This document shows, piece after piece, positions 1 to 47,243 of a stretch of DNA of 64,000 nt; position 1 is the stretch's first letter, and each line of letters opens with the position of its first letter. Where the stretch lies: positions 19,048-83,047 of the forward strand of contig CACALG010000001.1 in the NCBI GenBank assembly GCA_902533295.1, read 5' to 3'. The position numbers and the translations under genes are program-made. Below the pieces are notes generated by a model. The model saw only the letters and a list, made by a program, of their open reading frames with translations, did not search any database and was not told where the DNA came from. The stretch comes from an uncultured marine group III euryarchaeote. Lineage in GTDB: Archaea > Thermoplasmatota > Poseidoniia > MGIII > CG-Epi1.

Positions 1-477
1 TCTAAAAATACTGAGTTTACAAAGTTAGTTAATGTACTTCAAGAGAAATTGATTCATCCTGGTAAAGTTGGGCGTGTGCATAACCTTTTCTTGCTTTCAA
101 AATCAGGTATTGTTATTAGCAACCTATCTGCTAATGATGTTGAAGAGACTGATGCAGATATATTAGGTGGAATGTTTACAGCTGTAAAGAATTTCATGGA
201 AGATGCGTTTAGTGCACGCAGTGATTCATCATTGAATGATATACAATTTGGTAATTTCCACATAACATTTGCTTCTGGAGCTTATTCAGAATTGGCAGTT
301 GTATATACAGGAATAATTAATCAAGCCTCAGAAGATGCTATTGCAGATACATTAATCGCTTTTGAATTAGAACATATGGCGGTTTTGGAAAATTGGGATG
401 GTGATCTTTCAAAATTAGCAAATTCAGCAGATTATTTGGAAAAACTTTTTTCAGATATTGATAAGGATAAAAGTTAA
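1..477 (+). CDS. 3' end of a gene running in from upstream of the window; Roadblock/LC7-like domain homologous to the cytoplasmic C-terminus of the 1720-aa surface protein
   Basis: Frame is open from nt 1 with no stop, so the first listed start (TTG at 49) is unlikely to be the true start. Translated sequence aligns with the C-terminal tail of ORF 16966..22128 (DADILGGMFTAVKNFMEDAF vs DTDIMSGMLTAINDFVQDSF; NWDGD vs NWNGD). Confidence 0.4.
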   Translation, partial: SKNTEFTKLVNVLQEKLIHPGKVGRVHNLFLLSKSGIVISNLSANDVEETDADILGGMFTAVKNFMEDAFSARSDSSLNDIQFGNFHITFASGAYSELAVVYTGIINQASEDAIADTLIAFELEHMAVLENWDGDLSKLANSADYLEKLFSDIDKDKS

Positions 478-9151: not shown

Positions 9152-9163
9152 AGAAATACAAGT

Positions 9164-9240: not shown

Positions 9241-10707
<1,467 letters not shown>

Positions 10708-10989
10708 TTTTTTCCTTTCGAATGCACACTATGAGTTTATAAATTTACTAGAATTGTCGGATTGACTGCACTAGTTTCGCTTAGATTTCGAATGTCAGAT
10801 GATAGCCCAAACTAGGGTTGTTATCATCTCCATAACATTGTCTGCAATAACGGAATAGGTCCATCATAAAATCAGGAATTCGCCGAAGTCATTGCAACCG
10901 CTTACACGGTACCTGGTGACAGTTTTACCTGTTCAGGAGCTTCATCACTTAAAATGGTCTATTTAAGAAAAACGCCATATTTATCATAG

Positions 10990-13900
10990 TTAAACCTTAA
11001 CTTGAAATTGTTGCCCAGGCTGTAATCCAGCAGGTATTGCAACAGTTACAACACGACCATCTGGTGCCTTAATTTGAATCTGCTGTCCTGGTTGTGCTCC
11101 AGCAGGTACTGCTACATTCAGAACGGTTCCTCCAGGAGCTGGTGCAGGCGGAGCTGCAGGTTCAGGGGCAGGTGGTTGTTCTGGAACTGGTGCAGGAGGT
11201 GCTGCTGCAGGTTCAGGGACTGGTGGTTGTTCTGGAACTGGTGCAGGAGGTGCTGCTGCAGGTTCAGGGACTGGTGGTTGTTCTGGAATTGGTGCAGGAG
11301 GTGCTGCTGGTGGTTGCTCAGTTATTGGAGGTGCAGCAGGCGGTTGTTCTGGTAATTCACCACCGAAAGCATCCAGTGAATCTCCAGAAGACTTAGATCT
11401 AGAATAGAAAAAGTATCCAGCTCCAGCTCCAACTAATACTACAGCTCCTGCCCCGGCTAAAACGATTGGATTAAATGATTCTGATGATCCTCCCCCTGTA
11501 ACTTCACTTTCTTTGAGTGTTCCTGAAACAGCTATTTTTACGATTTCAGAATCATCATTTAGAGCATCCTGTGGGCCCAATGCAGGTATTACACTATCTC
11601 TGTTAATTCTAACTTTTAGAGTTAGTTCACCATCATAAGGATCTGGTAATATATGTATTATTTGAACTTCAAGTGAACCAAAACCATCTATTGTAAAGTT
11701 TCCATCATTACCAGGATAAGTATCATCGTCCAAAGTGACTACAGAACCAAATTCTAACAATTCAAGAGTTCCACTAGCTGAAGCTCCCCCTTCGTTTGCC
11801 AAAAATATTTTTAGAGTAACCTCATCTCCTTCGCCAGCATTCATAGGAATTGCCATGAGACTTGTGATTGCGAGACTTGGTGGAGTGGAAATTTCCACTC
11901 TATTATTTGTATCAGAGAAAATAAGTTCCTCTGAATCCCAAAATTGCTCTCCACTATTTTTAGCATTGATATCTCTGATTGATAACTCAAATGTCCAGAA
12001 GCCTGTAAAATCAGAATTTCCACCAGATAGGAAAGAAACTGAAGGATAATTCTCATTAAAAGTGATTATTGTCTCTTCATTAGCAGGTAATTCTATGGAA
12101 CCATAACTGTCAACAATACCTGCAAAATTAACTTGGAGGTCTTTTCCAGATTTTGTAAGGCTAATTTCAGCATTTGCAGTTACATCAAAAGAACCTTCAT
12201 TCATTACATGGATTTTTGCATAAGCAATTGAACCATCACTAAATGAGACAAGTTCATTGCCATTCTCATCCTCCCAAACAATCTGAGTAACTATCAAATT
12301 AGGCAATTTTTTAATATCAATATCAACTTCTTCATCAAACAGTACACCTTCTTCAGAATCTTCTAACATTATATACAATTTTTCTACATTAGCAGTAGGT
12401 GTGATCTCTCCTTGGAAAGTTTTTGTCTCATCTACATCAACTTTTGTTTGAGGCTCAATAGTTATGATATTGTCTTCATCATCACTATCATCCCAATACA
12501 AAGTAGTTGTAATCTCTCCATATTTTTCACCATCATTCTCAATTTCTAAACTCCATGTATTCGCTATTCCTTCAACAAGCATATCTCCAAATTCAATATT
12601 GTAAGTAATATCGGGAGATGCAGATGAAACCAATATTGATTGTGAAACACTATCTTCGGCACCCTGACTACTGTCTTCTGGTAAAGAATCTACAATTTCT
12701 GCAGTTATTGTGTGTTCTCCCTCAGGTATATCTCTCCAGGTTGTAGTCACTGTTTTAGATTCCCCTCCTGTTACTCCATCTATATTAGCTGTAGCAATCA
12801 AATCCCCTCCATTTCTGAATTCTACGGTTACTCTTGCATCACCTTCCCCGTCATTTGATATGACTGCTGAAATAATTACATCATTACCTTCCACTAATTC
12901 TCCGGAAAATGATAGATCATCTATTGATAAATCTGCATCAGTAGTCAAGATATTTAGATCAGTAAGTTTTACTCTTCCAGGAGTTTCAGAATTTAATTTT
13001 AGTATTGCTTCAGCTTCCAAATCATCACTATTCTCTATCACTGCATTAAGTGCACTGACTAGCCCATTTGTACTGACGTGAATCACGGCATCATATTCAA
13101 TACTCAATTCACTAAAACCTACAGTACCTTTAGATGAACTACCCACAGTCATTACAATTTCAGTCATTTCTACACCATATTCATCAACAATAGTGTCACC
13201 ATTGTCTATTGCATCTTGTAATGCTTCTTGTAGGGCATTTTTCAAAGATTTTATTCCACCGGATTCACCCCATGTTTGCGGAGAATTTTCACTGTTTAAT
13301 TCACCAGCCCATTCCCAATCATTATTATTTGTAATTTTAATGTATGGATCCTCTGGGTAATCATCACTAAGAGTGCTTCTTACATAGATATTTTTGTCCG
13401 TATCCTCGCCACCAGAAATATCTGTTTCTTCAGTAAATGCAAAGTATGTTTTATCTCCAACTACCATATCCATGCGGTGATATTTTGCAACTAGTTGCTC
13501 ATTGTCATAATCAGTAATCTCGAAGCTGTCAGACCATGAACCTCCATCATCCTGGGTAAAAGCGAAATAGTAATCATACGAGCCTCCGGAAGCATATTGA
13601 TATGAAATATATGTAAAACCAGAACCACTAGCAATACTTGGTAATGCAAGCGTAGTACTAGTATCGGTATCTATTGCAATTGTAACATCGTTCCATGTTT
13701 CTCCATTGTCATTGGATACTGCCCAAACAATATCATAATCACTTGAACCATCTCCATCATAATCTCCACTGTCTACCCAAGCTACATACAATTTTGATCC
13801 TTCAGCACTAATAACGGGAGTATATGAGTAATAAGCAGTTGTTCCTTCATTTAAATAGACTAAATCAGCCCAGGAACTTCCATCAGTACTATATGTGTAA

Positions 13901-16197
13901 TACAAAGATTCACCATATGATGAATCACTCCAAACTAAATGGAATTTTCCTTCATTATATAATATTTCAGGCATATAATTTAGGCCAGTTGTGTCTCCAC
14001 TTACCAGGATAGCATCATCCCATGAGCCACCACCATTAGTTGAACTGACTGTGTAAATATCATATGTATACGTATTTGTCCATGAAGCAACAATATTATT
14101 ATCATCATCTGATGTAATAGTTAAACCATATTTTACTCCCGTGTTTCCACTATCTATTTTTTCAGGTGATGTCCAATCTTTACCATTATTTGTTGATTTT
14201 GTGTAGTAAATTGAGGATACACCAGTATATCCGTTATAATCTGTCCACGCCACATGTACATCATCTCCAGATGCAGTGATATCGGCTCTATATTGTAATG
14301 TTGTTGAAGAATAATCTAAATCTGTAGCATGATCATCATCAAAATTAGAGAGAACACTAAGTTCTTCCCATGATTCTCCACCATCATCCGATCTTGTGAA
14401 ATATACATCACCATCTCTTGTAGACTGATCACAACCGTTTGTGTCATCTTCCTGATCTAAATCACCATTATCAAGATAAACAAGATACAAATAATCATTA
14501 GAGTAAGCGATACTTGGACTACCAGAGTCTGCCTCATAATAATGTTCGGAAATATCCTCTATATCAGACCATGTAGAACCATCATTACTACTAACAGAAT
14601 AAACTATATCTTGGTCGTTTGAAGCACCACTTCCATCATATTCATCTGACCAAACTACAAGAACTTCATCAGAATTTGCAGTGATAGTGGGTGATGCTCT
14701 AAACTCATTCACATCGCCATTACTAATTCCGTCAACATTAACTGGTGAATTCCATGAACTTCCTGAATTCGCACTCCGTACAGACATTATTTTACGTGGA
14801 GAATTAATATCGTCGATATCCATCCATGTCATATAGAAATTATTGCTCCCATCATTGTCAGATCCTAAAAATGAAAAACTGGATCCATCTGCTGCTTGAA
14901 TCACATTTTCAGAACCAAAACTTGTGCCAGAATTAGATGATGTTTTAGATTTTATTGCATAACCATCTCCTGTAAGTTCAAGCCATCCAATAATAACATT
15001 AGATCCTTGTGCAGAAATTGTTGTTTCAGTGACAGTCTCATCTGAACTTATAGTGCCTGGCGAGCCAAAAGTTTCGCCTCCATCTGTAGAACGTGCATAT
15101 TCTGCTGCATAGTAAGATTGAGATTCATAGTATTGTTCCCAGCTGATGTGTACATTGTTTCCGCTAAGGGCTATTTGAGCACCAATACTACTTGAACTAT
15201 CTGCATCTGAAATTAATATTTCATCGTCCCAAGATTGCCCTAAATCATCTGATTTTTGATAATAGATGTGGTATTCATCATTACTACTCTCTTTGAGAGC
15301 AGACCAAACAATATGAATGGTCCCATCACTACTTACAGCTCCATCGTAATCATAGATAATGTAATGCGAACTACCTGGTTCTATTTGCTGTCCAGTAGAC
15401 CATGTTTCTCCCTCATCATCACTATAGGAAGCTTCAATGACTTCACCACCTGTGTCTGATATCCAGGCAATAACGGCATGATCATCATTTGCATGAATGA
15501 GAACATCGCTAAGAATAGCGCTTGTTTCAGCTCCATTTGTAGCAATAAGTACTATATCATCCCAATTACCATCATAATATCTAAACTTAACAGAATCAAT
15601 AGTTGTATCTCTATCGGTCAAGTCTCCATCATCAATCCATGCTACATAGTAATCATCATCTAGCATAGATACTACTGGTGCACTCGAAGTAGAACCGCCA
15701 TTTGTGCCTATTGAGGCTTTATTATAGTCATTTAATTCACCAGATCCATAAGGTAAACCAGTTATTTTGATAGAGGCCTCATTGATTGTAGTATTCGTAG
15801 GAAGATATAGTGATACCTCTTCTTCACCACTGCCTGCAAACCTTGCGGATGCACCTTTAGCATTACTAGAAAATTTTTCCTGATAGCCTAAAGCCCCATA
15901 TCCAGTTCCATCATATTTCCATTCGTAATTTTTAACACCTAATGATAACCCTTCAGGATATGAACCATCACTATCAGGCATACCTGAAAGGCCAATATTA
16001 GCTTCTAAAACTTCTGTAGCAGGAAATTTAACAGAAACACTAGAATCCTCATTTTCACCATCTAAAGTAACTGTCTTTTCATCACTGCCATTACCTTCTT
16101 TGTAATAGGTTGTTGAGGTTTCCCCAAATACAGATGAAGTACTACTGAGCAAGAGAAGTGTCACGGCGAAAGCCACGACTTTGTTTTCAAACATCAT
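10990..16197 (-). CDS. giant secreted surface protein (1735 aa) with many BNR/Asp-box (SxDxGxTW) repeats, a C-terminal TM anchor and a proline-rich cytoplasmic tail
   Basis: Signal peptide; at least 12 Asp-box motifs (SDDEGETWS, SDDLGQSW, STDGGETF, SNDGSTW, SDDGGESW, STNNGKDW ...); TM IVLAGAGAVVLVGAGAGYFFY followed by 17-aa Pro-rich repeats. Confidence 0.6.
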   Translation of the reverse strand: MMFENKVVAFAVTLLLLSSTSSVFGETSTTYYKEGNGSDEKTVTLDGENEDSSVSVKFPATEVLEANIGLSGMPDSDGSYPEGLSLGVKNYEWKYDGTGYGALGYQEKFSSNAKGASARFAGSGEEEVSLYLPTNTTINEASIKITGLPYGSGELNDYNKASIGTNGGSTSSAPVVSMLDDDYYVAWIDDGDLTDRDTTIDSVKFRYYDGNWDDIVLIATNGAETSAILSDVLIHANDDHAVIAWISDTGGEVIEASYSDDEGETWSTGQQIEPGSSHYIIYDYDGAVSSDGTIHIVWSALKESSNDEYHIYYQKSDDLGQSWDDEILISDADSSSSIGAQIALSGNNVHISWEQYYESQSYYAAEYARSTDGGETFGSPGTISSDETVTETTISAQGSNVIIGWLELTGDGYAIKSKTSSNSGTSFGSENVIQAADGSSFSFLGSDNDGSNNFYMTWMDIDDINSPRKIMSVRSANSGSSWNSPVNVDGISNGDVNEFRASPTITANSDEVLVVWSDEYDGSGASNDQDIVYSVSSNDGSTWSDIEDISEHYYEADSGSPSIAYSNDYLYLVYLDNGDLDQEDDTNGCDQSTRDGDVYFTRSDDGGESWEELSVLSNFDDDHATDLDYSSTTLQYRADITASGDDVHVAWTDYNGYTGVSSIYYTKSTNNGKDWTSPEKIDSGNTGVKYGLTITSDDDNNIVASWTNTYTYDIYTVSSTNGGGSWDDAILVSGDTTGLNYMPEILYNEGKFHLVWSDSSYGESLYYTYSTDGSSWADLVYLNEGTTAYYSYTPVISAEGSKLYVAWVDSGDYDGDGSSDYDIVWAVSNDNGETWNDVTIAIDTDTSTTLALPSIASGSGFTYISYQYASGGSYDYYFAFTQDDGGSWSDSFEITDYDNEQLVAKYHRMDMVVGDKTYFAFTEETDISGGEDTDKNIYVRSTLSDDYPEDPYIKITNNNDWEWAGELNSENSPQTWGESGGIKSLKNALQEALQDAIDNGDTIVDEYGVEMTEIVMTVGSSSKGTVGFSELSIEYDAVIHVSTNGLVSALNAVIENSDDLEAEAILKLNSETPGRVKLTDLNILTTDADLSIDDLSFSGELVEGNDVIISAVISNDGEGDARVTVEFRNGGDLIATANIDGVTGGESKTVTTTWRDIPEGEHTITAEIVDSLPEDSSQGAEDSVSQSILVSSASPDITYNIEFGDMLVEGIANTWSLEIENDGEKYGEITTTLYWDDSDDEDNIITIEPQTKVDVDETKTFQGEITPTANVEKLYIMLEDSEEGVLFDEEVDIDIKKLPNLIVTQIVWEDENGNELVSFSDGSIAYAKIHVMNEGSFDVTANAEISLTKSGKDLQVNFAGIVDSYGSIELPANEETIITFNENYPSVSFLSGGNSDFTGFWTFELSIRDINAKNSGEQFWDSEELIFSDTNNRVEISTPPSLAITSLMAIPMNAGEGDEVTLKIFLANEGGASASGTLELLEFGSVVTLDDDTYPGNDGNFTIDGFGSLEVQIIHILPDPYDGELTLKVRINRDSVIPALGPQDALNDDSEIVKIAVSGTLKESEVTGGGSSESFNPIVLAGAGAVVLVGAGAGYFFYSRSKSSGDSLDAFGGELPEQPPAAPPITEQPPAAPPAPIPEQPPVPEPAAAPPAPVPEQPPVPEPAAAPPAPVPEQPPAPEPAAPPAPAPGGTVLNVAVPAGAQPGQQIQIKAPDGRVVTVAIPAGLQPGQQFQVKV
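11130..11335. repeat. tandem 51-bp repeat (~3.5 copies) encoding a 17-aa Pro-rich unit (PVPEQPPVPEPAAAPPA) in the cytoplasmic tail of the 1735-aa protein
   Basis: Direct repeats ctggaactggtgcaggaggtgctgctgcaggttcagggactggtggttgtt with period 51. Confidence 0.7.
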
Positions 16198-16248: not shown

Positions 16249-16986
16249 ATGACTGAACAATACCACATGAATTCCCATGAAGGCACATATACTAGGGAAT
16301 TTGAGGCTAAAGTAGAGGCTACATTCCCAGGCATCATCGAACTAGATAAGACTGCATTCTATCCATTGGGAGGGGGCCAACCCTCAGATATTGGAACAAT
16401 AACTTGGAATGAAGGAGATGCAAATGTTACTGATGTGAGGAAAAAAAATCGAATTAGGCACATTGTAGAAGGAGATTTACCAGAAGTTGGAGATTCCATA
16501 AAAGGTAATCTTGACTGGTCACGAAGATATTCACATATGAGAATGCATACTTCTCAACATTTAGTTTCTGCTGTAGTGAATGAAATATATGGTTCAGATA
16601 CCGTAGGAAATCAGATAGGAAATGAGAAGTCTAGAATAGATTTTAAGCCTTTAAAAATAAACCAAACTGAGCTTAATGAAGTAGAGGACAAAGTCAATGA
16701 TTACATATCTAAAGACTTGAAAGTTACTATATCTGAGGAATTACGGTCCAATTTAGAAAATAATCCAGATATCCGTTCAAGTATGTCTAGTGGTCTTTGG
16801 AAAATGTTACCGAAAAGTGTTACAGAATTAAGAGTAATAACCATAGGTGATATCGATGTTTGTCCATGCGCAGGCACTCATGTAAAAAGCTTAAAGGAAA
16901 TAGGTAATGTTTCTTTTATTAAAAGAGATAATAAGGGTTCTGAAAAATTAAGATTAACATATAATCTAGGCGATATCGACTCTTGA
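16249..16986 (+). CDS. alaX: alanyl-tRNA editing protein AlaX (AlaRS editing-domain homolog)
   Basis: Zn-binding HxxxH (HTSQH) and CxxxH (CAGTH) editing-domain motifs; 245 aa. Confidence 0.65.
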   Translation: MTEQYHMNSHEGTYTREFEAKVEATFPGIIELDKTAFYPLGGGQPSDIGTITWNEGDANVTDVRKKNRIRHIVEGDLPEVGDSIKGNLDWSRRYSHMRMHTSQHLVSAVVNEIYGSDTVGNQIGNEKSRIDFKPLKINQTELNEVEDKVNDYISKDLKVTISEELRSNLENNPDIRSSMSSGLWKMLPKSVTELRVITIGDIDVCPCAGTHVKSLKEIGNVSFIKRDNKGSEKLRLTYNLGDIDS

Positions 16987-19900
16987 ATTTGTAAGGCCCT
17001 CTCTGTCCTTTTGTTCATACATCATTTTAATTTCTACAGAAGTTGCAGCATTACTTTTTTGTTGCATTTTTAGTTTAAATTGTACTTCGTTATATGAAGA
17101 TATATCACCCACAATAAACGAGTTATCTGAGAATGAATAATATACATCTGGATCTATACCTACTAATCCTAAGATGCTACTATTGAATTCTGGACTTATT
17201 TTACAACTACTAATAGTTTCAGATGAATAATTACTGAGATTTACGTTCAAAGTTATATTTGTACCGAGTTTTTCGTATGATGATGTAATAACAATTTCTT
17301 TTTCAGTGAAGTAATTGTCAACCATTTCTCTTGTAGATGCAATTGTTTCATCAATTATTGGGTTCAGATAAATTTTTACCTGCTTTACACTCTCGGCATC
17401 TCCATTCCAATTTGCTAGGGTTGGATTAATTGTTTCTATAGCTCTAACGGCATTAATCAGCTTCCCTTTGAACATATTATCTATTTCTCCATAAATTACA
17501 GCAGCAAGATAGGAATGTTCTCCTCTCTGTAGAATGATTTTATTATTACCATAGTCTATGGAACCCAGATCTCCTTCAGTTTGAAATGAGTCTTGAACAA
17601 AATCATTGATTGCTGTGAGCATCCCGCTCATGATATCTGTATCAGTTTTAACTTCAACAGCACTAACATTTCTAAGAAGCCTTCCATCTTTGTAAATTAA
17701 ATATAATTCTTCAACTTTATACTTAGCAATAGGTTTTGATTCAATAATAGATACATTTTCATCTAATTCTTCTTTCCTAGATCGGTATAGTAAAACACCA
17801 CCAAACATTAAGAAAAGAAGACTTATACCTATAGTAGCAGGTAAAATTTCTTTCATTCCAAATTGATCAGTTTCTGTACCTGAGGAACTATATAATTTGA
17901 CTACTTCTTCCATACTTACTGTTTCATTATTAGAATTGCTAATGTGACCGAATTCATCTTCTATTGTGATTCTATAAAAATAATCTCTGTCTGGACTTGG
18001 ATTCTTATGAATCCATTCATAATAACCTTGTTTACAGGAAGTTTCCATACCAACTCCTATTATTTCTTGTGTGAACCATCCACTATCTGAAGCAGGTAAT
18101 TCATCAGCTACCATTTGTACTTTACAAATAGCGGCATCTTCAGGAATAACAAAACCTAAAACCAATTCTGTAGCATTAGTATGCGATATTGCAACATTTG
18201 TAGCTTTCTGAGGGTCCTCTGTAAATACTTCAAAAGTTAAATGAACTCCTGAATAATCAATTTTTATGTTGTTATTACCTGTAATATCCTCAGTTGGTAC
18301 AAAACCTCCATTTGAAGTTCCACCAAATTGAATAGTCTTATTGATTATATCTAAATAATATTCATCTACTAACAATTTATTTTTGTTCATTCCTCTAACT
18401 AATGCTTTTTCATATATTCCATCTAAATCATTATCTACACTAACATTAAACCAATGGATATCATTAATTGCTGGAATATATTTCAAATTGAAACTTTGAT
18501 CATATTGCCCATTGGAACTGAAATATTCAGTAGTATCTAGTGGATTCTCAAGATTGCCTGCAAGATCACGACTTTCAGCATACAGGAAATATCGTGTATT
18601 ATCTTGCAAGTCCTGTAATTTAATTTTATCATCAGAGATATCATGAGGTAATAAATACCAAGTTAATAGATCATTACCTTTCTCTATAGTCTGTATTGCA
18701 ATATATATCTTATAATCTAGATTTAGATTATCTGTATCTATGAAGATTTCTAGATAATCATATCCCCATTTTTGAGGTACATTTGAGAAAGAAATGGTAT
18801 CTACTTTCGATGCATAATTCATTATTATATCATATTCTTCTTTATCCTCACTATTTCCGGCATAATCACTAGCCAGAATTTTAAATGCATAATGACCTAA
18901 TTCATCAAATTCATAAATATAGTGCGTGTCTCCATAAATATTTATTGAATCCAGAGCTGTCCAAGTAACTGAATTAGGATCTAAATTAGCATTTGTAAAA
19001 TTAGAATAGGAAACCTCTAGAGTATTATACGCAATATCATCTGCACTATTCTTCCACGATAAATCTATTTGACTATTGCCTATGAAATAATAATCCTCTT
19101 CAAAATTCAAAAGTTCGGTGGAAGGTATGGATGTATCAATCTTAACTTGATACTCGTAATTATTCTTATTCTCTGTGTTTCCATAAATATCTCTAGCTAA
19201 TGATCTAAACCGATATTCCTTACCATCTTCGCCAGTAAACAATACAATTGATTCTGTAAACGTGCCATATTCTTCCCATTGGGCAAATTTATCATTTACT
19301 ATATACTCAATAATATATTCTTTGAAATCATTATCATCATTCAAAAGAGATATTTGTAACTCAATAGATTCTGAATTAATTAATCCAGTTCCGGGAATTA
19401 TCTCTGATTGTGGTGATGTTGTATCCAATAATGCTAAAAGTGTGTGATTATAGGATAAATTTTTGTATATTTCTACCATAATGTCATTATTATAATAAAT
19501 AATTCTTATGGGATTATAATTAATTTCATTTTGATCGGCAGCTTTGCTAATTACATTTATCATATAATAATCGGAAAAACCATAGTTATCAGTTTGTGAA
19601 TCAACCAGTTTACTTCCAAAAGAATTTTCGATATCAAAACCATGCTCTCTTGAACCAGTGCCCCGCTCATCAGCTATATTAATTTGCAAATTGTAGCGGA
19701 TCAAATAATCAGTATCACGACAATTAAAATCATTGTTTTGTAAAGTAGAATCACTGTCAATTAAGTCCAAACAAAAATCTCCTTCTGAGAATATATTATT
19801 ATCTATTGATATAGTACTATTAAATGAATAAATAGCTTTTTCAAAATCGTTAAAGACATTGTTTAAAATATTTATATCTGATCTATAAGAGCTTACTGAT

Positions 19901-22128
19901 TGTGTATTATTCGTTAATATATTATTTGAAATTCTTCCTTCACTATTATTTGCAGTTATAGCTATTTCCGAAAAATTAATAATATTGTCTTCTAAGTCAA
20001 AATCTGCAAGAACGACAGTTATAGATTCTCTAAAATTCGTTATTATATTATCACTAACTTCGACTTCACCTTCCTGCGAAAAAATACCTACTGCAGCAAC
20101 TTTTTGTAAATAAAGAACATCACATCTATCATGTGTGCATAATCCGGTTACATTATTATTAACTATTTTACTATATGTCCTGTTACTAAGAATACCATAA
20201 TCATTTACATGCAATATATTATCTTCAATAAGTATAGGAAACGTACTATCCTCAAATCCTCCTACTTCGATACCCACTGCCGAACTTAATGTATTATTTT
20301 TAATTATAGTTTTTGGAATATAATATGCATAAATTCCTGATAATTGTGATTCAGGACTCATGTTTGTTTGAACTGTATTATTTGCAATATATCCTTCTTC
20401 AACATCTCTGAACATTATGCCAGCACCATCGATAGAATGAACAAGATTATTTGTTACATGTATATTATCAATTGTAAATGCTGAACCAAACTGAGTATAT
20501 GCAGATATTCCATTATATTTTATATTTTTGAGTGTGTTATTAGCGACAATACCATTTGATATGTCGCCAAAACCATTATCATATATCCAAATTCCTATAG
20601 ACGCATTATCAATATAATTATCCACTATAGTAAAATTTTTGTAGAAATTCCAAACCGTTATTGCTCTTGCTGATGTATTAGTAATATAATTTGAAATTAT
20701 ATGATTATCAGTTCCTACATCATTATATACATTTTCAAAATCAAGCGCTATTGGAAAGTCATTATCATTGATGGTATTATTTATTATATAATTTCCAGAA
20801 GGTGATATACCTCCTTCAGGCCAACCCCAAAGTCCTATAGCTTGCCATCCTATTTCAAAATTATTATTTCTTATAGTATTATTGTTCTGAAATGAATTAA
20901 TAAAAATAGCAATTGTGTAATTTTCAAAGTAATTATTTTCGATTAAATGACCTCCACCATAATATTCATCTGTATCAAAATCCCAGAACCAGAAAATCAT
21001 ACAACTATGCCCCCAATAGGGTTGTTTAGACCCGCAATTTATGAATGTATTATTACTGTATTCATTTCTATTTCCTGCACGATCCATAAGATTGTGCCAA
21101 TATACGCCAGAAACATTGAATATGTTGCGGCTAATTATATTGTCATCTGTAGCTTGTAGAGACATATCATGTATTGTATTATTTAGAAATTGGTTATCAA
21201 TTATTGTATGATTACTGCCTTGAGTTATAGTAAGCGTACCTCTGCCTCCCTGTCCATTATCCTTGTAAATATAATCTCTAAAGATGTTACCACTAATTAG
21301 ATTATAATTCCCATAGGAAATAGTTACACCTAATGTACCGTTAATGAAAGTATTATTTTGTATTAAGGCGTTCTCTCCTGAGACAAACAAGTCATAGAAT
21401 ATGTAACTATTATAAATCGTGTTATTAATAAATCTAAAATTATCAGTATAAGCACTAATTATTCCAATCATATCAAATGTGGAATTAGTTATGTAAGATC
21501 CAGCTCCAGTAAATCTTAATGCCTTTACATACTCAAAATCAGAATTCTCAATAATTACCCTAGTATTAGGAATTCCTGAGCCTGGCTGATTATTTACTAA
21601 TCTGCCTACTTGAACAGTATAATCTAACCTCTCTGTGTAATTCCCTTTACCAATTATATTAGATTTAATAACGGAACGATCATTACTAGTTGTCGGATTC
21701 AAATCATAATCTGTAACAATTAGTACAGAATTCTCATTTAAATCAAGACAATTAGCAGTTATTTCACTATTCTTTTGAATAGAATCAAGTATTAATTCAG
21801 AATTAATTATGGTCAGTGTACTGTATAATGATATATTGTCACCATGTGAATCTTGTTCATGAAATACTGTAGAATTAATCCATCTGGTTTCTCCTCTAAT
21901 TTCAATGAAACCTTTTGATGATAGAGAAACGTTTTCAAGTTTCAAAGTCTTACCAAAATTAACGACAATATCTTTGACTGAGACGTCCTCATCCCAAACA
22001 TGCGTGTCTTGAGTGATAATCCAATCCTGACCCTCTTGGGGTGCATTTCCATTTGAACCTGCTGAAGCATTTCCAGTACTGATTACTATCGCAGTAATTG
22101 CGATTAAAAGAAATGCTGTTTTCTTCAT
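16966..22128 (-). CDS. giant secreted surface protein (1720 aa) with parallel beta-helix repeats, a C-terminal TM anchor and a cytoplasmic Roadblock/LC7-like domain
   Basis: Signal peptide; long run of N-rich beta-helix-like repeats (NNT..N..I); TM ILPATIGISLLFLMFGGVLLY near residue 1350; C-terminal ~130 aa homologous to ORF 1..477. Confidence 0.6.
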   Translation of the reverse strand: MKKTAFLLIAITAIVISTGNASAGSNGNAPQEGQDWIITQDTHVWDEDVSVKDIVVNFGKTLKLENVSLSSKGFIEIRGETRWINSTVFHEQDSHGDNISLYSTLTIINSELILDSIQKNSEITANCLDLNENSVLIVTDYDLNPTTSNDRSVIKSNIIGKGNYTERLDYTVQVGRLVNNQPGSGIPNTRVIIENSDFEYVKALRFTGAGSYITNSTFDMIGIISAYTDNFRFINNTIYNSYIFYDLFVSGENALIQNNTFINGTLGVTISYGNYNLISGNIFRDYIYKDNGQGGRGTLTITQGSNHTIIDNQFLNNTIHDMSLQATDDNIISRNIFNVSGVYWHNLMDRAGNRNEYSNNTFINCGSKQPYWGHSCMIFWFWDFDTDEYYGGGHLIENNYFENYTIAIFINSFQNNNTIRNNNFEIGWQAIGLWGWPEGGISPSGNYIINNTINDNDFPIALDFENVYNDVGTDNHIISNYITNTSARAITVWNFYKNFTIVDNYIDNASIGIWIYDNGFGDISNGIVANNTLKNIKYNGISAYTQFGSAFTIDNIHVTNNLVHSIDGAGIMFRDVEEGYIANNTVQTNMSPESQLSGIYAYYIPKTIIKNNTLSSAVGIEVGGFEDSTFPILIEDNILHVNDYGILSNRTYSKIVNNNVTGLCTHDRCDVLYLQKVAAVGIFSQEGEVEVSDNIITNFRESITVVLADFDLEDNIINFSEIAITANNSEGRISNNILTNNTQSVSSYRSDINILNNVFNDFEKAIYSFNSTISIDNNIFSEGDFCLDLIDSDSTLQNNDFNCRDTDYLIRYNLQINIADERGTGSREHGFDIENSFGSKLVDSQTDNYGFSDYYMINVISKAADQNEINYNPIRIIYYNNDIMVEIYKNLSYNHTLLALLDTTSPQSEIIPGTGLINSESIELQISLLNDDNDFKEYIIEYIVNDKFAQWEEYGTFTESIVLFTGEDGKEYRFRSLARDIYGNTENKNNYEYQVKIDTSIPSTELLNFEEDYYFIGNSQIDLSWKNSADDIAYNTLEVSYSNFTNANLDPNSVTWTALDSINIYGDTHYIYEFDELGHYAFKILASDYAGNSEDKEEYDIIMNYASKVDTISFSNVPQKWGYDYLEIFIDTDNLNLDYKIYIAIQTIEKGNDLLTWYLLPHDISDDKIKLQDLQDNTRYFLYAESRDLAGNLENPLDTTEYFSSNGQYDQSFNLKYIPAINDIHWFNVSVDNDLDGIYEKALVRGMNKNKLLVDEYYLDIINKTIQFGGTSNGGFVPTEDITGNNNIKIDYSGVHLTFEVFTEDPQKATNVAISHTNATELVLGFVIPEDAAICKVQMVADELPASDSGWFTQEIIGVGMETSCKQGYYEWIHKNPSPDRDYFYRITIEDEFGHISNSNNETVSMEEVVKLYSSSGTETDQFGMKEILPATIGISLLFLMFGGVLLYRSRKEELDENVSIIESKPIAKYKVEELYLIYKDGRLLRNVSAVEVKTDTDIMSGMLTAINDFVQDSFQTEGDLGSIDYGNNKIILQRGEHSYLAAVIYGEIDNMFKGKLINAVRAIETINPTLANWNGDAESVKQVKIYLNPIIDETIASTREMVDNYFTEKEIVITSSYEKLGTNITLNVNLSNYSSETISSCKISPEFNSSILGLVGIDPDVYYSFSDNSFIVGDISSYNEVQFKLKMQQKSNAATSVEIKMMYEQKDREGLTNSRVDIA

Positions 22129-42238: not shown

Positions 42239-44332
42239 CTAATTTTCTTTATCATCACTCATTTTTTTTCTGAGCTGTTCAACAGAAACCGAAATTTTCT
42301 TTTCAGGAATGGATTCTGCGCCTTGGGTAAATTCTTCAACCTCTTCAACTTCCTCATTAAAATCACCAACGTCTTCAATATCTGATGAATCATCATCAAA
42401 AACTTCAACCGCTGACTCAGCGACATCCTCTTCTCCAATATTTTTAGAAATAGCATAATCTCCATCACTACCTTGTCCCACAGCAATATCCCCGCTTTCG
42501 ATATCCTCTGCCAATTGCATGCGCTTTTCTGAACTAGCATCATCCACTATTTCCTCTAACAATTCCTCTGGTGAAAGCTCCTCCTCCACTTCTGGAAATT
42601 CCTCATCTTCTGTCTCAATAAGTTCATCTAAATCTAATTCAACTTCCTCATTATACAAGAATTCTGGCATTTCAGGAGCTACCGCACCTGGTGTAGCTAT
42701 TGCATCATAAAATTCAAAAGCCGTCCTCTCAACCTCTTCCACAAATTCTTCTAAATCTTCTTCCCCTATTCTAGAATAGATAGTAGCCATTCTATCTGCA
42801 ATGAATGCAAAGTAATTCGGTGCAACTTCAAATGCTTTTTCAGTCCATGTAAATGGAATCCATGCCATAACTTGCTTATTTTTAGGATCTACTGTTATTT
42901 TTAATTGAGGACCAGGATAAATTATACCACCGCAGGAAACATCATAATTATTCATATATGCTAAAACTTTGTACACATCTTCTTGTTTTGGTGTTTCAGT
43001 TAAATTATATTTGGCCTCAAAATAGAAATTGACTTTCTTATAATTCATGAAAATTTCAGGCCTTCCTGAACCCTGAACAGGATTGGTCTTAGTGTCTGAT
43101 TCAGCAAAAAGTGAACCCATTATTGAATCGCTCCAGCCTTGCCTTACTTGTTCTGGTGCATCATATTTCAATACTACATCTTTATTTTTAGATCTAAACT
43201 CACGAAGTGATTTAGCATGTGCACTTAATTTTAATCCTGATGCCATCTCACAGAGAATCCATAGAGCATAAATATCTGTCATCTTTTGTGTCTGTACAAG
43301 TACTGTTTCTTCATAATATGATTGGTACTCATCTAAAAACTCTCTCCACAAAGGGGGCAATTCTCTGTAAGAACGATTTCTACTCCAAGTTTTAGCTTCG
43401 ATAAGTGCTTCTCTATTAATTAAACGCTGCTCTTTACGAGTAGCCTTAGCAGTAGGTATTAATTCTGCTAATTTCCCATCACCTAAGACCTGTTTATGGA
43501 ATTTACATGCCATATCTAACTTATCCAATTGCTCCTTAACTGAATCATTAGGGGGCTGATATTCTTTGCCATAAATTGCAGACCAAGCTTTCTTTTCCCT
43601 TTCTCTTCTATCCATTTCATCTCTAAAAAAGATAGCTTCAATGAAAACTTCCATATGGAATTTTACAAGAAGGATGTTAGTGGGTGTACTCCATCTCCTC
43701 TTTCGGATATCTGTTACATGAGCAGTAGCATATTCTGTACCTTTTTGAGCACGAGCAAGAGCCGTTTTTTGCCACCTTACTGCACCCCTTATCTGGGATT
43801 TCATAGTCTTTCTTTCAACTTCTACTTTGTAAGTGTAAGCTCCTTTTCGGATATCATTTGTAACTTTCAACAATTTTCCAGAAAATTCTAATAATTGTTC
43901 AATATTAAGTAATATTTTCTCCTCTTCAATTGATGATGTCCCACCAGGATACATGTCTTCGGGCGGATCATCGGCTCCAGAATTCTTAACCAAATCAGGA
44001 ATATGAACATCTCGTAATTCTTTGAAGCTCTCATAATCTAACATCTTAGGAGCTATCACAACTTCTAGCTTGTTTGAAACCGAACTTCCATCTTTACTGT
44101 GCAAACTTATAGTGTTAGTTCCAATATAGTCTGGCACTACAAACTGTAGAGAATGTGTTGTATTTGATCTAACTGGAGGTAATGAATCAACTTTAGCACT
44201 ACCTACTCTGATATGCACATCTTCTAATGCCTTGAAAGCATTAACATTCAACATAACTGATTCACCCTCAGTCAAATTCTCAGAATGACCCTCTGGTAAT
44301 CTGAGATCTATAGTTGCATCTGGTAAACTCAT
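42239..44332 (-). CDS. McrC-like PD-(D/E)xK nuclease-family protein with a long acidic C-terminal tail
   Basis: Candidate catalytic motif RPEIFMNYKKVNFYFEAKY (E-x13-E-A-K-Y, cf. E. coli McrC D-x12-DAKY); start 1 nt after the stop of the upstream McrB-like gene; last ~170 aa about 40% Asp/Glu. Confidence 0.5.
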   Translation of the reverse strand: MSLPDATIDLRLPEGHSENLTEGESVMLNVNAFKALEDVHIRVGSAKVDSLPPVRSNTTHSLQFVVPDYIGTNTISLHSKDGSSVSNKLEVVIAPKMLDYESFKELRDVHIPDLVKNSGADDPPEDMYPGGTSSIEEEKILLNIEQLLEFSGKLLKVTNDIRKGAYTYKVEVERKTMKSQIRGAVRWQKTALARAQKGTEYATAHVTDIRKRRWSTPTNILLVKFHMEVFIEAIFFRDEMDRREREKKAWSAIYGKEYQPPNDSVKEQLDKLDMACKFHKQVLGDGKLAELIPTAKATRKEQRLINREALIEAKTWSRNRSYRELPPLWREFLDEYQSYYEETVLVQTQKMTDIYALWILCEMASGLKLSAHAKSLREFRSKNKDVVLKYDAPEQVRQGWSDSIMGSLFAESDTKTNPVQGSGRPEIFMNYKKVNFYFEAKYNLTETPKQEDVYKVLAYMNNYDVSCGGIIYPGPQLKITVDPKNKQVMAWIPFTWTEKAFEVAPNYFAFIADRMATIYSRIGEEDLEEFVEEVERTAFEFYDAIATPGAVAPEMPEFLYNEEVELDLDELIETEDEEFPEVEEELSPEELLEEIVDDASSEKRMQLAEDIESGDIAVGQGSDGDYAISKNIGEEDVAESAVEVFDDDSSDIEDVGDFNEEVEEVEEFTQGAESIPEKKISVSVEQLRKKMSDDKEN

Positions 44333-44333
44333 A

Positions 44334-47243
44334 TCAACCGAATACGCTTAAACCTGGTGAATCAACCATTTTCTCTAAGGTATTGCTTATGCCGTGGTCT
44401 TGACCAAGAACTTCTTGAGCTTTTAGCATTAAACATTTTAGCTCATTTCTTTCCAATCCTTCCAATGCAGGCATTATATTGGATTTAATTACATCCTCTA
44501 ATGCTCTATCTAAATCATATTGCCCTCGAGAATTAAAGACAGTCAACATTGAATCTATAATTACTGCAGGACCAATCTTTCTATAAGTTCTAACACCTCT
44601 TGCAATTTCATCATCTCTAGATTGAGGTAACTCTTCTTCCTCCAAGAAATTCATAAATTTATTGAATGCTTTGAACATTGTCCCATCATCATCATAAAAG
44701 TCAAACATTTCTTTGGCATACCAATCCTCCTCTTCACTGTCCTCAGGCCTATCAGGTGCAATTCCCAACTTATTCAGTTTATTGAACACAAATATAGGCA
44801 TACGTCTGTACTCATCATCTCTATCAGGAAGACCAATTTCAACGAAAGCAAATCTTCTCATTAAAGCGTGACCCACATTGAAAAGAGTATTCTTATCTTG
44901 AGTATTCATAGTTCCAATTATTCTGAATTCTGGTGGCATCATAAACGGAGCCCCGCCAGTCTCTTTTGCTGTAAGAAGTGCTTGCTTGTCCCTGTACTCA
45001 AACACCGTAAATAATTTACCAAAAGCTTCATCGATATTTGCTCTATTAAACTCATCGATTACTAAATAATGAGGTTTGCCATCCTCTTGCATTGTTTTTT
45101 CACAACTCTTTGCAGCATCTGCAACATAACCATCTTTGAAAAAATAACCTCCTGAATCATCTGGTGAGATACCACCAATAACTTCGAAATTAGACCATTC
45201 TGCATTTGCAGTTACAATGGTGTAATTAGGAATAGGACTGCCGTCTTTTCCCTCTTTGACTCCACATATTTGACTCAGCAAAAGATTAGCTAATGCTGTT
45301 TTACCAGTACCTGGATCTCCATACAACATTATGTTTCTACCAGATTTAAGGTGTGTTACTGTCTGATTAATAGTATCTTCAGTCGTTGAATAATATTTTG
45401 ATAATTCTTCATAGTCAACATTGTAATCGACTTTCATTGCTTTTCGAATCTTTGGAGATTCAGCTAATTCTTCTTTCAAATCCTTTTCTAAATCATCTAA
45501 GTGAGAAAGATCAGCTCCATAATTTTCATCCTCTGTTGGCTTGATGTCTATTGTTGCTTCAGGAAATTCTGAAAGAAGCCTATCCATTGCATCTTCTAAA
45601 CTAATTTCTTTAGGTGTTGATGATGATGGAGTTTCGTCAGATTTTGGCCCATCTTCTGCCTCAAAAGAAGAATCGAAGGGATCTGAGGAAGGGGGACTAG
45701 ATAATTGCATTTCCATCATTTTATCTCTGAATTTCTCTGCACCAAATTGCCAACCATACCATATAGCACCTCCAGAAACTATGAGTGGAATTAGAAACAT
45801 AGCCCATTCTTCACTCGATTCAGGAGATGAAATATCTGAACCTGAAAGTAAAGCAGGAGCAATCATTGTTGCGAATAAAGTGCCTATTCCTGCTACAAAT
45901 AATCCAAAATAAGCAAACCCTTCCATGCTTTCTTCGGATTTCCTTTTCCGGTAAAATAAGAATACACCCAAAAATGTAATAACCATAAACAAAACAGTAA
46001 GAATCCAGTCTCCCTGTTCAAAATAAAAATTAGCCCCATTACGTAATAAATTCCATAACAATACAATGTACTGGAATCCAAGACCAAACAATATGAAGAA
46101 GAAATATTTTGCTTCTTCCATATCTTTCAAACGAATTGTTTGAAGAATATAGGCTGCAATACCTATCAAAAGAGCTAAAACACCAAGCATTAAAACTAGC
46201 ATTTCACCCGCTTGAAGATTAAGCATCACTGTTGCAGTTCCCATTGGTGGGTCTGCGGATGCACAAGCAGATTGAAGATCTGGGATTGTACTATCGTATG
46301 ATCCAACTGCGTCACATGAAGCCCATGGTCCACGCACCCAATTATGGTGTATAGATCCAAATACTAATGAACCGGCTCCCACAAAGGAATAAATTGTACT
46401 CAGTGGAGCCTCTCCAATGTCTTTTCCAGTTACTGCATACAAAAATACGATATAAGATACAATAATTATTATTAGAGAAGACGTCGCTCCTAGAGATGAA
46501 TAAAATCCATCTAGTGCACCTTTTGGATATGTCTCATTAATGAATGACTCACCTTCTGTAAGCTTTTCATCATTTGCGCTAGAATATCCACCGCCTACAT
46601 AAACATAAATAATAAGCATCACAAAAACACACAGAATTAATGGAGCCATGATATTACTATCATTAATCCGTCTTGCTTGTATCATAATTAATAGAGCAAG
46701 GAGCGTAAGCAAACCAAAAACAGACTGAAATTGATGAGTATCTACTTTGAAATCGGATGTATCAAAATTATCTCCTTCACCGACACGACCCCCCGGTCCA
46801 TTATTCAAAACCAACGGACATCCATCTTTATCTCCACGAACATCTATATCCGACCAACCTGGACACACAAGTGGGTTATTATCATCAGTCCAACCAAGTA
46901 AAGTCAACTGCGCTTTTTCTTCATCAGTTAACTCTTGTTCTATCTCGCTATTTGACTCTGGAGCCTCATCATTGTAATGTGGGATGTCTCCTGTTGTATA
47001 ATACAAAATCAAACCTAAGAGGGCAACAGCAATCAAAAATTGTAAAGCTGGCAAGTAAAAACTAGGTTTAGTTTTGATTAAAGGTGGTTTAGAAGTTGCA
47101 GCAGGCTTACCTTCAGATTTAGAAACTGGTGTCTCCACTTGAGAAGGACCTGAATCCTTAGCTCCAGACAGATTTACACCGCAAATATTACAGAATGGTG
47201 CATTATCTTCAACATCTACAGCACAGACTGGGCACTTTTTCAT
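44334..47243 (-). CDS. McrB-family AAA+ GTPase fused to an N-terminal zinc ribbon and a polytopic (~9 TM) membrane domain
   Basis: N-terminal CPVC...CNIC zinc ribbon; multiple hydrophobic helices across residues ~60-580; C-terminal AAA+ domain with Walker A LYGDPGTGKT and McrB-signature motifs VIDEFNRANIDEAFGKLF and IIGTMNTQDKN...ALMRRFAFVEI (cf. E. coli McrB IDEINRAN, IGLMNTADRS, ALRRRF). Confidence 0.65.
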   Translation of the reverse strand: MKKCPVCAVDVEDNAPFCNICGVNLSGAKDSGPSQVETPVSKSEGKPAATSKPPLIKTKPSFYLPALQFLIAVALLGLILYYTTGDIPHYNDEAPESNSEIEQELTDEEKAQLTLLGWTDDNNPLVCPGWSDIDVRGDKDGCPLVLNNGPGGRVGEGDNFDTSDFKVDTHQFQSVFGLLTLLALLIMIQARRINDSNIMAPLILCVFVMLIIYVYVGGGYSSANDEKLTEGESFINETYPKGALDGFYSSLGATSSLIIIIVSYIVFLYAVTGKDIGEAPLSTIYSFVGAGSLVFGSIHHNWVRGPWASCDAVGSYDSTIPDLQSACASADPPMGTATVMLNLQAGEMLVLMLGVLALLIGIAAYILQTIRLKDMEEAKYFFFILFGLGFQYIVLLWNLLRNGANFYFEQGDWILTVLFMVITFLGVFLFYRKRKSEESMEGFAYFGLFVAGIGTLFATMIAPALLSGSDISSPESSEEWAMFLIPLIVSGGAIWYGWQFGAEKFRDKMMEMQLSSPPSSDPFDSSFEAEDGPKSDETPSSSTPKEISLEDAMDRLLSEFPEATIDIKPTEDENYGADLSHLDDLEKDLKEELAESPKIRKAMKVDYNVDYEELSKYYSTTEDTINQTVTHLKSGRNIMLYGDPGTGKTALANLLLSQICGVKEGKDGSPIPNYTIVTANAEWSNFEVIGGISPDDSGGYFFKDGYVADAAKSCEKTMQEDGKPHYLVIDEFNRANIDEAFGKLFTVFEYRDKQALLTAKETGGAPFMMPPEFRIIGTMNTQDKNTLFNVGHALMRRFAFVEIGLPDRDDEYRRMPIFVFNKLNKLGIAPDRPEDSEEEDWYAKEMFDFYDDDGTMFKAFNKFMNFLEEEELPQSRDDEIARGVRTYRKIGPAVIIDSMLTVFNSRGQYDLDRALEDVIKSNIMPALEGLERNELKCLMLKAQEVLGQDHGISNTLEKMVDSPGLSVFG

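Follow-up and report, generated by a model that had tools for sequence, protein, structure and literature searches.

A predicted longin-fold module shared by a response regulator and the cytoplasmic tail of a giant surface protein in Marine Group III archaea

The window (the whole 64,000-nucleotide stretch of Marine Group III DNA analysed here) contains two copies of a domain that we call module X: a giant surface protein carries one in its cytoplasmic tail, and the other lies at the C-terminal end of what orthologues identify as a two-component response regulator. The predicted fold of the module is that of a longin domain, a conclusion that is well supported, whereas its mechanism is something that we infer: we propose that module X mediates protein–protein interactions through which a phosphorelay is coupled to tails anchored in the membrane, a reading to which we give slightly less than an even chance.

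Two copies of module X and the proteins that carry them

A profile of module X finds exactly two copies among the six-frame ORFs of the window. The first belongs to a type-I surface protein of 1720 aa (16966..22128, minus strand; from the ORF list, its translation and Pfam), in which a putative signal peptide comes first, then a beta-helix and Ig-like domains, and after a single TM helix a cytoplasmic tail of 272 aa. The signal-peptide-like N-terminus (MKKTAFLLIAITAIVISTGNASA; 22060..22128, minus) was read by eye from the translation. The extracellular right-handed beta-helix with NosD-like repeats (aa 222-659; 20152..21465, minus) is defined by matches to Beta_helix (PF13229, E 3.9e-16) and NosD (PF05048, E 2.8e-8). 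In Marine Group III genomes (L003-L017) orthologues of the giant protein occupy syntenic positions.

The single TM helix (aa 1428-1448, ILPATIGISLLFLMFGGVLLY; 17785..17847, minus, placed by translation and coordinate mapping) lies just upstream of module X, has a Kyte-Doolittle 19-mer mean of 2.19 and is followed by RSRKEE. Because of this charged stretch, and because the same domain is fused elsewhere to REC, which acts in the cytoplasm, the sequence is consistent with a cytoplasmic position for the module. Thus far a previous reading made from the sequence alone (hereafter the sequence-only reading) was correct, both in the single C-terminal helix and in the side of the membrane. Its tail of ∼130 residues was too short: the 272 aa comprise module X (∼140 aa; profile envelope aa 1460-1600, 17329..17751, minus; folded core aa 1470-1593, 17350..17721, minus) and a C-terminal 9-strand beta-sandwich of ∼110 aa that is cohesin-like or adaptin-ear-like (aa 1612-1719; 16972..17295, minus). 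Accordingly, the interval to which the shared domain had been assigned (16966..17500) takes in the last third of module X and consists mostly of the beta-sandwich. The sandwich, which is also present in the predicted model, scores above the Pfam Cohesin cut-off (PF00963; 26.1 versus 24.1 bits). We treat this match as a generic beta-sandwich resemblance: cohesins belong to extracellular scaffolds and pair with dockerins, and the predicted topology places the sandwich in the cytoplasm.

The second copy is found at the left-hand edge of the window, in an ORF of 158 codons plus stop (1..477, plus strand) that forms the 3′ part of a gene encoding REC, a linker and module X; the longin-fold core of the module occupies 73..459 (plus) and REC lies upstream of the window. 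The tail of the giant protein and this ORF are 32% identical over 152 aa (BLASTP E 6e-20), and the motif pairs from which homology had originally been proposed align in register: DTDIMSGMLTAINDFVQDSF / DADILGGMFTAVKNFMEDAF; SYLAAVIYG / SELAVVYTG; NWNGD / NWDGD. Homology between the two was therefore rightly recognized, but the ORF is not the end of another giant protein. An orthologue (L048:5455-6405) is complete at 316 aa, 94% identical and carries Response_reg (PF00072, E 2.7e-22); homologues of ∼264-276 aa also carry PF00072, and the full-length homologues are all REC-X proteins of ∼314-337 codons. Four related loci (L047, L053, L055 and L060) moreover share synteny with the window at its left-hand end. 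Judged from these sequences, ORF 1..477 is the end of a soluble two-component response-regulator gene of ∼316 aa, its REC domain being deduced from orthologues and synteny, as the window begins downstream of the 5′ end. The ORF thus belongs to a stand-alone soluble protein, the very outcome that the sequence-only reading had named as contrary to its own proposal.

Module X defines a family of 5,473 clusters at 50% identity. A hydrophobic helix precedes the module by no more than 80 aa in 74 of the 143 top representatives, and in 66 of the 143 the module is the C-terminal end of the protein. The ectodomains joined to X-sandwich tails vary (beta-helix, PKD, Ig, CARDB), and the module is also fused to CHAT protease, STAND NTPase/TPR and DUF835/iKaiC domains. 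Many relatives of the tail carry, in addition to X and the sandwich, a third, putatively alpha/beta domain with the conserved sequence VVCPIFFT...ITGLLAEF, for which Pfam returned no match. There are also soluble multi-copy proteins and soluble X-sandwich proteins, and soluble paralogues end in repeated MDDLLGKLDEL helix motifs. One soluble paralogue (in L071) has a subtilase, ACT, Smr and transporters for neighbours, all unrelated.

Searches of curated collections did not place the family. At E ≤ 10, Pfam-A hmmscan of 14 X sequences gave stray matches only (DUF7280, 0.1; CNP_C_terminal, 0.13), and NCBIfam gave no match to the module. The cluster names of the family included one that was useful, a DUF835 protein of a Thermoplasmata archaeon, and a further word-indexed homologue search with the diverse profile A4 added almost nothing. 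On the sequence evidence, module X is a large archaeal family that neither Pfam nor NCBIfam annotates and that cannot be connected by sequence with any family in curated collections.

The predicted fold of module X

In the AlphaFold2 models of both the tail copy and REC-X, strands and helices follow the order bb-a-bbb-aa, and a five-stranded antiparallel sheet lies between helix 1 and helices 2-3, which is the longin topology. The tail model (mean pLDDT 79.5) has residues 1-18 disordered, begins with a strand and places two helices after the sheet. Overall confidence is low for the REC-X model (mean pLDDT 59), which has a helix ahead of strand 1, but with a pLDDT of ∼40. A structure search returned longin domains as the closest solved structures to the module, not PAS/GAF. 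From these predicted models the assignment of a longin fold is well supported. At 5-12% sequence identity the likeness could be either very ancient or convergent.

Sequence profiles are silent as to the fold. None of the 14 X sequences matched Robl_LC7 (PF03259) even at E ≤ 10, nor, in Pfam at the same threshold, the curated longin families (Longin, Clat_adaptor_s, Sedlin_N and Sybindin among others). PDB profile searches with alignments A2 and A4 returned no longin chain at E ≤ 10; those with A1, A2 and A4 returned REC, weak cohesin matches and de novo helical-bundle artefacts alone. Alignment of the family profile by hhalign gave a probability of 1.7% with human DYNLRB1 and <1% with AP2 sigma and Sec22b, each represented by a single sequence and thus uninformative as a template. 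The sequence-only reading had proposed a Roadblock/LC7 fold, while already suggesting longin profiles for comparison. The broad Roadblock/longin class to which it pointed stands; the specific assignment does not, the tail module being longin-like, devoid of the N-terminal helix and without a Robl_LC7 match.

A Roadblock/MglB-like or longin-type module might nonetheless act as a regulator (a GEF/GAP platform) of a Ras-like GTPase, through which an adhesin-like protein signals from the outside in. In prokaryotes the cognate small GTPase of a Roadblock protein (MglA/Rag-like) is usually encoded nearby. The gene neighbourhoods searched here, the window plus 70 related loci amounting to several hundred kb, yielded no relative of HRas, Arf1 or MglA by phmmer, and Pfam found no small GTPase among about 50 of the window's ORFs, so that the GTPase coupling previously proposed finds no support. 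Nor does the module look like a GAP. GAP-type longins (FLCN/NPRL2/SMCR8/C9orf72) are marked by a GP motif ahead of strand 2 and have an arginine finger that is catalytic (PMC12290439). In module X the corresponding b1-b2 loop has the sequence KDGRL for the tail copy and KSGIV for the REC-X copy; its Gly is invariant but precedes Pro in none of the listed sequences of alignment A2, and the invariant columns of the family alignments include no Arg. Finally, the second copy of X is the output domain of a response regulator, which points to signals arriving from a cytoplasmic phosphorelay; outside-in signalling has no greater support than inside-out control by such a relay. Regulation of a GTPase is, in our view, unlikely.

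Several polar residues are conserved across the family alignments: D37 (≥90%), D54 (invariant within the subfamilies of the window), E106 and W115-x-G117-D118, the W-x-G-D motif lying between helices 2 and 3. They might mark an acidic/aromatic site at which X, as a sensing or allosteric module akin to PAS/GAF, recognizes some small molecule or the head group of a lipid and reports a metabolite to phosphorelay regulator and membrane proteins alike. About half of the representatives do have X next to the membrane, and REC-PAS/GAF proteins, in which the latter domains may serve as inputs, prevail among archaeal response regulators (PMC5847659). The top structural matches are longins, however, and not PAS/GAF. 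Longin domains are not known to act as small-molecule sensors, and we consider this explanation very unlikely. The same residues (D37, D54, E106, W115-x-G-D118) do count against the protein–protein interaction reading that we favor, as they could form a ligand or partner site that has nothing to do with dimerization.

The tail as a whole invites a different comparison. The TM-X-sandwich arrangement, with the third domain in many relatives, might be a built-in, adaptin-like cargo handle that recruits membrane-remodelling or sorting machinery such as ESCRT-III/Vps4: surface proteins would be sorted, clustered or shed in vesicles, with REC-X and the soluble X-sandwich proteins as regulators or competitors. 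The best two-domain Foldseek matches are the mu subunits of AP-1/2/3 and COPI delta (E 5e-9 to 1e-6), although with low TM-scores of 0.2-0.3, and the sandwich resembles GAE and alpha-adaptin ear domains, although a beta-sandwich matches many things (the scores of cohesin, macroglobulin and pilin domains are just as good) and ∼110 aa compares with ∼270 aa for a mu-homology domain. The same tail is borne by many ectodomains, as would befit a handle. Asgard ESCRT-linked proteins are described that combine longin and adaptin-appendage domains, as are appendage-like domains in euryarchaeal ESCRT loci (PMC11188069); however, no ESCRT gene was seen beside any X gene examined. The MDDLLGKLDEL repeats of the soluble paralogues are loosely like MIT-interacting motifs, but are one residue off in spacing. 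Taken together, a cargo handle of this kind is distinctly unlikely.

Gene neighbourhoods and a proposed link to nutrient signalling

REC-X genes keep consistent company. Of the 20 related loci with a REC-X gene, 19 have two-component genes next to it, the neighbours being Hpt, HisKA/HATPase_c kinases and a stand-alone receiver. Hpt lies upstream of REC-X in nine of the 20. One kinase is fused, in several genomes, to an ammonium transporter (Amt): the Amt-HK fusion is whole in four loci near REC-X (L052, L053, L055 and L060), an Amt fragment is found at the contig edge in two (L057 and L058), and in seven further loci a histidine kinase is directly downstream of REC-X.

REC-X and membrane-anchored copies also occur together. 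At least 14 genome bins hold both REC-X and TM-X proteins. In one locus (L011) REC-X has two giant TM-X-sandwich genes directly beside it, and two loci without REC-X (L012 and L006) have one TM-X-sandwich gene in the matching position beside TYW2; this adjacency could reflect an insertion hot spot instead of function. In the window a stretch of 16.5 kb that contains housekeeping genes separates REC-X from the giant gene.

The usual role of longin domains is to serve as platforms for homo- or heterodimers, and it is for this reason that we propose the docking of REC-X on X/beta-sandwich tails. Phosphorylation of REC-X would control its docking onto the membrane-anchored tails, or onto a shared partner, such that a cytoplasmic nutrient signal may alter the clustering, sorting or turnover of surface proteins from the inside out. 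No dedicated small GTPase would be required. By analogy with dimeric longins, REC-X and the tails might heterodimerize. The proposal is supported by the two-domain likeness of the tail to AP mu/COPI delta subunits and to GAE ears and by the fusion of X to DUF835/iKaiC, itself another REC-associated output domain, and archaeal response regulators signal mostly via protein–protein contacts (PMC5847659). Overall the analyses suggest that nutrient signalling is wired to the cell surface through contacts of this type.

A simpler possibility is that X is a passive oligomerization or anchoring domain that gives large surface proteins mechanical stability, by dimerizing them or by tying them to a scaffold in the cytoplasm, the REC copy being an independent reuse. 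The position of X, C-terminal and right after the TM helix in many large proteins, would suit such a role, as would the crystallization of a Lokiarchaeota longin domain as a dimer (8yqg). Passive anchoring nevertheless leaves unexplained the conserved association of REC-X with two-component genes, the CHAT protease, STAND NTPase/TPR and DUF835 fusions, and the soluble multi-copy proteins, and we attach little probability to it.

A bolder version of the REC-X and tail proposal is that Thermoplasmatota possess, outside Asgard, an adaptor-like system assembled from trafficking folds of eukaryotic type, in which surface ‘cargo’ proteins bear a longin and ear-like (perhaps platform-like) cytoplasmic cassette of their own, controlled by an ammonium or nutrient phosphorelay via REC-longin. 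We regard this as a long shot; if true, the system would be a prokaryotic counterpart or an early relative of both longin-based nutrient signalling (GATOR1/folliculin) and adaptor cargo sorting.

Membrane trafficking in eukaryotes and Asgard archaea is commonly taken to have longin domains and adaptin-like appendages among its hallmarks, and the X family is present in archaea that abound in the marine plankton (Marine Group III and other Thermoplasmatota). A functional link would provide a testable path by which uncultured archaea of the ocean could pass from sensing nutrients to changes at the cell surface (adhesion, polymer degradation), and would widen the pool of prokaryotic building blocks for the origin of trafficking machinery. 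At a minimum, thousands of C-terminal tails now labelled ‘hypothetical’ gain an annotation at the level of the fold, as does an output domain of response regulators of which we found no description.

Comparison with known systems

Compared with eukaryotic longins (Sec22b, Ykt6, VAMP7, the N-terminal domains of AP sigma/mu, and TRAPP sedlin/synbindin), module X is 5-14% identical and gives no profile match. It is found in a non-Asgard archaeon, either anchored at the cytoplasmic face of the membrane, C-terminal to a giant ectodomain, or joined to REC, and has its own W-x-G-D motif but no SNARE motif, coat subunits or nearby GTPase. Asgard archaea have longins too, including a Lokiarchaeota Roadblock-Longin protein (PDB 8yqg) and NPRL2-like longins that carry two-component domains in the same protein (Liu et al., bioRxiv 10.1101/2020.10.19.343400). 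The host here, in contrast, belongs to the Thermoplasmatota, and X is without the GP motif of GAP-type longins. The accessible portions of the Asgard longin literature make no mention of a TM-anchored longin joined to a beta-sandwich, and no relevant paper came up in a literature search that combined longins with Marine Group II/III or Poseidoniales.

Roadblock/LC7 and MglB domains (PF03259) have a three-layer alpha/beta sandwich related to that of X and share its bb-a-bbb core. The order of the former is a-bb-a-bbb, with the N-terminal helix packed on the sheet, whereas the tail module lacks this helix and has two C-terminal helices; REC-X has a possible extra helix ahead of strand 1, modelled at low confidence. 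No MglA-like GTPase turned up in the neighbourhoods searched. AP mu and COPI delta likewise combine a longin with a beta-rich C-terminal domain, but the tail has a single ∼110-aa sandwich, the two-domain superposition is poor (TM 0.2-0.3), no heterotetramer is apparent and the ‘cargo’ itself bears the cassette through a covalent link.

A further parallel comes from archaeal response regulators (Galperin et al. 2018, PMC5847659), in which REC is followed, as in REC-X, by outputs that are neither DNA-binding nor enzymatic and presumably work by contacting other proteins. Lineage-specific examples include REC-DUF835/iKaiC and the Roadblock-related NitrOD3 (PMC5847659). X gives no match to any of the output families included in Pfam, the comparison otherwise being one of tabulated architectures, and it differs in being also hard-wired to the tails of surface proteins.

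Position and fold of module X

Module X is cytoplasmic and membrane-adjacent on surface proteins. The 1720-aa giant (16966..22128, reverse strand, by ORF translation) has a signal-peptide-like N-terminus in translation, right-handed beta-helix/NosD repeats (Pfam E 3.9e-16 and 2.8e-8), more beta-rich regions beyond these, and a single hydrophobic helix (aa 1428-1448, 17785..17847, reverse strand) followed by RSRKEE. After the helix 272 aa remain, rather than the ~130 claimed in the sequence-only reading. Module X lies at aa ~1460-1600 of the protein (~17329..17751, reverse strand); the interval originally proposed, 16966..17500, takes in only its last third and is mostly a second domain, which scores above the Pfam Cohesin threshold (26.1 bits versus 24.1). 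The 3′ end of the gene overlaps a convergent AlaX-like gene (16249..16986, tRNA_SAD) by 21 nt (16966..16986).

The proposed homology between this tail and the partial ORF at 1..477 was borne out: the two share 32% identity over 152 aa (BLASTP, E 6e-20), and every motif quoted in its favor aligns in register. Searched with a module profile, the window yields these two copies and no others. A second giant type-I surface protein (1735 aa; 10990..16197, reverse strand), found in synteny with the beta-helix protein in genomes of Marine Group III, combines BNR_2 sialidase-like repeats with CARDB and has no module X by profile search; its cytoplasmic tail is quite different, with Pro-rich PEQPPxAPP repeats preceding a duplicated 'Q(I/F)Q(I/V)K-PDG..V.V.IPAGLQPGQ' unit. 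Elsewhere in the window, a 969-aa AAA_5 (MoxR/dynein-type) ATPase (44334..47243, reverse strand) and the 697-aa ORF after it (42239..44332, reverse strand; no Pfam match) may form a two-gene system.

Fourteen family members gave no relevant Pfam match at E <= 10, module X had no match in NCBIfam, and profile searches of PDB sequences with it returned nothing relevant; hhalign against single sequences of AP2 sigma, DYNLRB1 and Sec22b gave probabilities below 2%. The 272-aa tail was modeled with AlphaFold2 from 29 aligned sequences (mean pLDDT 79.5). In the model the juxtamembrane linker is disordered; strands 22-31 and 36-41 precede a helix (49-66), strands 75-78, 81-87 and 91-99 precede helices 103-125 and 136-145, and a short helix then leads to a nine-strand beta-sandwich (164-271). 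The predicted fold of module X is that of a longin: its element order, bb-a-bbb-aa, is the longin order, while Roadblock/LC7, the fold suggested by the sequence-only reading, runs a-bb-a-bbb, helix first. The model of REC-X, the response regulator carrying module X, is weak except for the sheet and C-terminal helices. The same reading made X a platform for small GTPases; no Ras/Arf/MglA-like GTPase was found in the window or in 70 related loci (phmmer queries HRas, Arf1 and MglA), and Pfam identified no small GTPase across about 50 window ORFs.

The best Foldseek matches of the tail model are AP-2/AP-1/AP-3 mu subunits and COPI delta (E 5e-9 to 1e-6), which likewise consist of a longin domain and then a beta-rich domain; ranked below them, GAE/gamma-adaptin ears match the sandwich (E ~1e-5, TM 0.6-0.67). 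TM-scores over both domains reach only 0.2-0.3, and a mu-homology domain is much larger than the sandwich. We read the modeled resemblance as a likeness of architecture, not membership; where identity is 5-14%, structural likeness is no proof of shared ancestry. The AP mu/ear resemblance encourages a rival explanation – that the X/sandwich tail would serve as an adaptin-like handle for sorting, tied to membrane remodeling – as do the published longin plus appendage combinations in Asgard ESCRT-linked proteins (PMC11188069). GAP-type longins are marked by a GP motif (PMC12290439), which module X lacks, its b1-b2 loop reading KDGRL or KSGIV.

Module X in a phosphorelay

The ORF at 1..477 had been taken for the end of another giant. 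Its homologues are not giant: they are ~264-276 aa as called, bear Pfam Response_reg, and the orthologues are soluble REC-X proteins. One Marine Group III genome encodes the orthologue in full (L048:5455-6405; 316 aa, 94% identity to homologue P0041), with an intact receiver domain (E 2.7e-22) and a linker ahead of module X. The neighborhood of this gene is conserved in either of two forms. In the first, an Hpt gene lies directly upstream, and a histidine kinase and a stand-alone receiver are transcribed divergently; the second form belongs to another subfamily, where the gene immediately downstream encodes a histidine kinase. In loci L052, L053, L055 and L060 the divergently transcribed genes of the first form also include an Amt-HisKA-HATPase_c fusion, a histidine kinase joined to a complete Amt ammonium-transporter domain (L052:2823-5072, 749 aa; also L053, L055, L060), and L057 and L058 have Amt fragments at the contig edge. 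Module X is the output domain of a response regulator in a phosphorelay that includes this Amt-fused kinase, and the divergent arrangement of the Amt-fused kinase with the Hpt and REC-X genes suggests that the phosphorelay senses ammonium.

The left edge of the window is syntenic with REC-X loci, sharing genes for a TYW2-like methyltransferase, AP endonuclease, NAD kinase and AspRS together with an unannotated 492-aa ORF. On this gene order, the missing 5′ part of ORF 1..477 is almost certainly a receiver domain, with Hpt before it. By the test that the sequence-only reading set for itself, this refutes its view of ORF 1..477 as the end of a giant.

At least 14 of the genome bins represented by the retrieved loci contain both REC-X and TM-X-sandwich (membrane-anchored) or multi-X giants. 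In L011 (Marine Group III isolate AH-321-L02) two tandem giant TM-X-sandwich genes (1900-6783, 6822-11774) lie between TYW2 and REC-X (11809-12423), directly adjoining REC-X and convergent with it. In L012 and L006 a single such gene adjoins TYW2 at the equivalent site, and REC-X is not within these loci; in the window the giant and REC-X genes lie 16.5 kb apart, with housekeeping genes between them. Four loci with X genes (L002, L006, L035, L063) are labeled bacterial (uncultured bacterium, Flavobacteriaceae, Neomarinimicrobiota); since L006 shows synteny with the archaeal loci of Marine Group III through its AP endonuclease, TYW2 and giant X genes, and the other three each encode close relatives of Marine Group III X proteins, all four are probably mis-binned.

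Size and architectures of the family

Module X represents a domain family that is both real and ancient. In a full HMMER scan its profile matched 5,473 representatives of clusters at E <= 1e-3, 3,753 of them at E <= 1e-10. The window belongs to Marine Group III (Poseidoniia, Thermoplasmatota; named sources and genome matches), and there are relatives among other Thermoplasmata and the Methanomassiliicoccales. Architectures were counted on the best 143 of the 5,473 representatives: in 74 a hydrophobic 19-mer lies no more than 80 aa upstream of X, in 66 the protein stops at X, 75 measure 800 aa or more, 25 carry two or three copies, and 42 have a beta-sandwich after X, as in the window tail. The sandwich is often followed by a third conserved alpha/beta domain of ~130 aa without a Pfam match (consensus VVCPIFFT..ANTAMLRRL..EAWFYGETKVK..FAAS..ITGLLAEF; P0183 aa 4726-4911, P0194, P0172, P0215, P0132, P0116 and others), which may form the platform half of a unit resembling an adaptin appendage.

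PKD, Ig and CARDB ectodomains are joined to module X; further partners are CHAT protease, STAND NTPase/TPR, DUF5915 and DUF835/iKaiC, the last of which is listed among the output domains that accompany REC in Methanomicrobia and Thermoplasmata (PMC5847659). The fusions to DUF835/iKaiC, CHAT caspase-like protease and STAND NTPase with TPR (P0160, P0176, P0139, P0167) suggest a wider signaling role. Proteins of ~2,390 aa with no TM helix near X occur in Marine Group III/II (L026:22-7185, L018-L042), and their representatives P0120 and P0129 have two internal X copies, CARDB and a C-terminal DUF5915. Soluble paralogues (P0028, P0029, P0035, P0036, L071:1-1188) combine X with a beta-sandwich and a long acidic tail that carries two to three copies of the amphipathic motif MDDLLGKLDEL; this motif is similar to a MIT-interacting motif, although its spacing differs by one residue, and no ESCRT genes are among the L071 neighbors.

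A proposed docking model and known systems

Longin domains are generally dimeric platforms. Archaeal response regulators mostly work via protein contacts (PMC5847659), and from these two properties we infer that phosphorylation-governed docking of REC-X would be the most economical mechanism. Phosphorylation would control whether REC-X docks to the anchored X/sandwich tails, or to a partner common to both, and docking would thereby couple a nutrient signal to surface-protein organization. Besides the GTPase platform of the sequence-only reading and the sorting handle, rivals to docking cast X as a ligand-sensing module or as a passive anchor.

A literature search of incomplete coverage found no published account of the module X family, of any longin fold from Marine Group II/III or of a longin plus sandwich tail anchored by a TM helix. 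Related arrangements have been reported: REC/two-component fusions of NPRL2-like longins in Asgard archaea (bioRxiv 10.1101/2020.10.19.343400), and a Roadblock-related output domain, NitrOD3, in Thaumarchaeota (PMC5847659). Beside these, we classify module X, on its predicted structure, as a longin-fold domain in new sequence space, in a new lineage and in new architectures.
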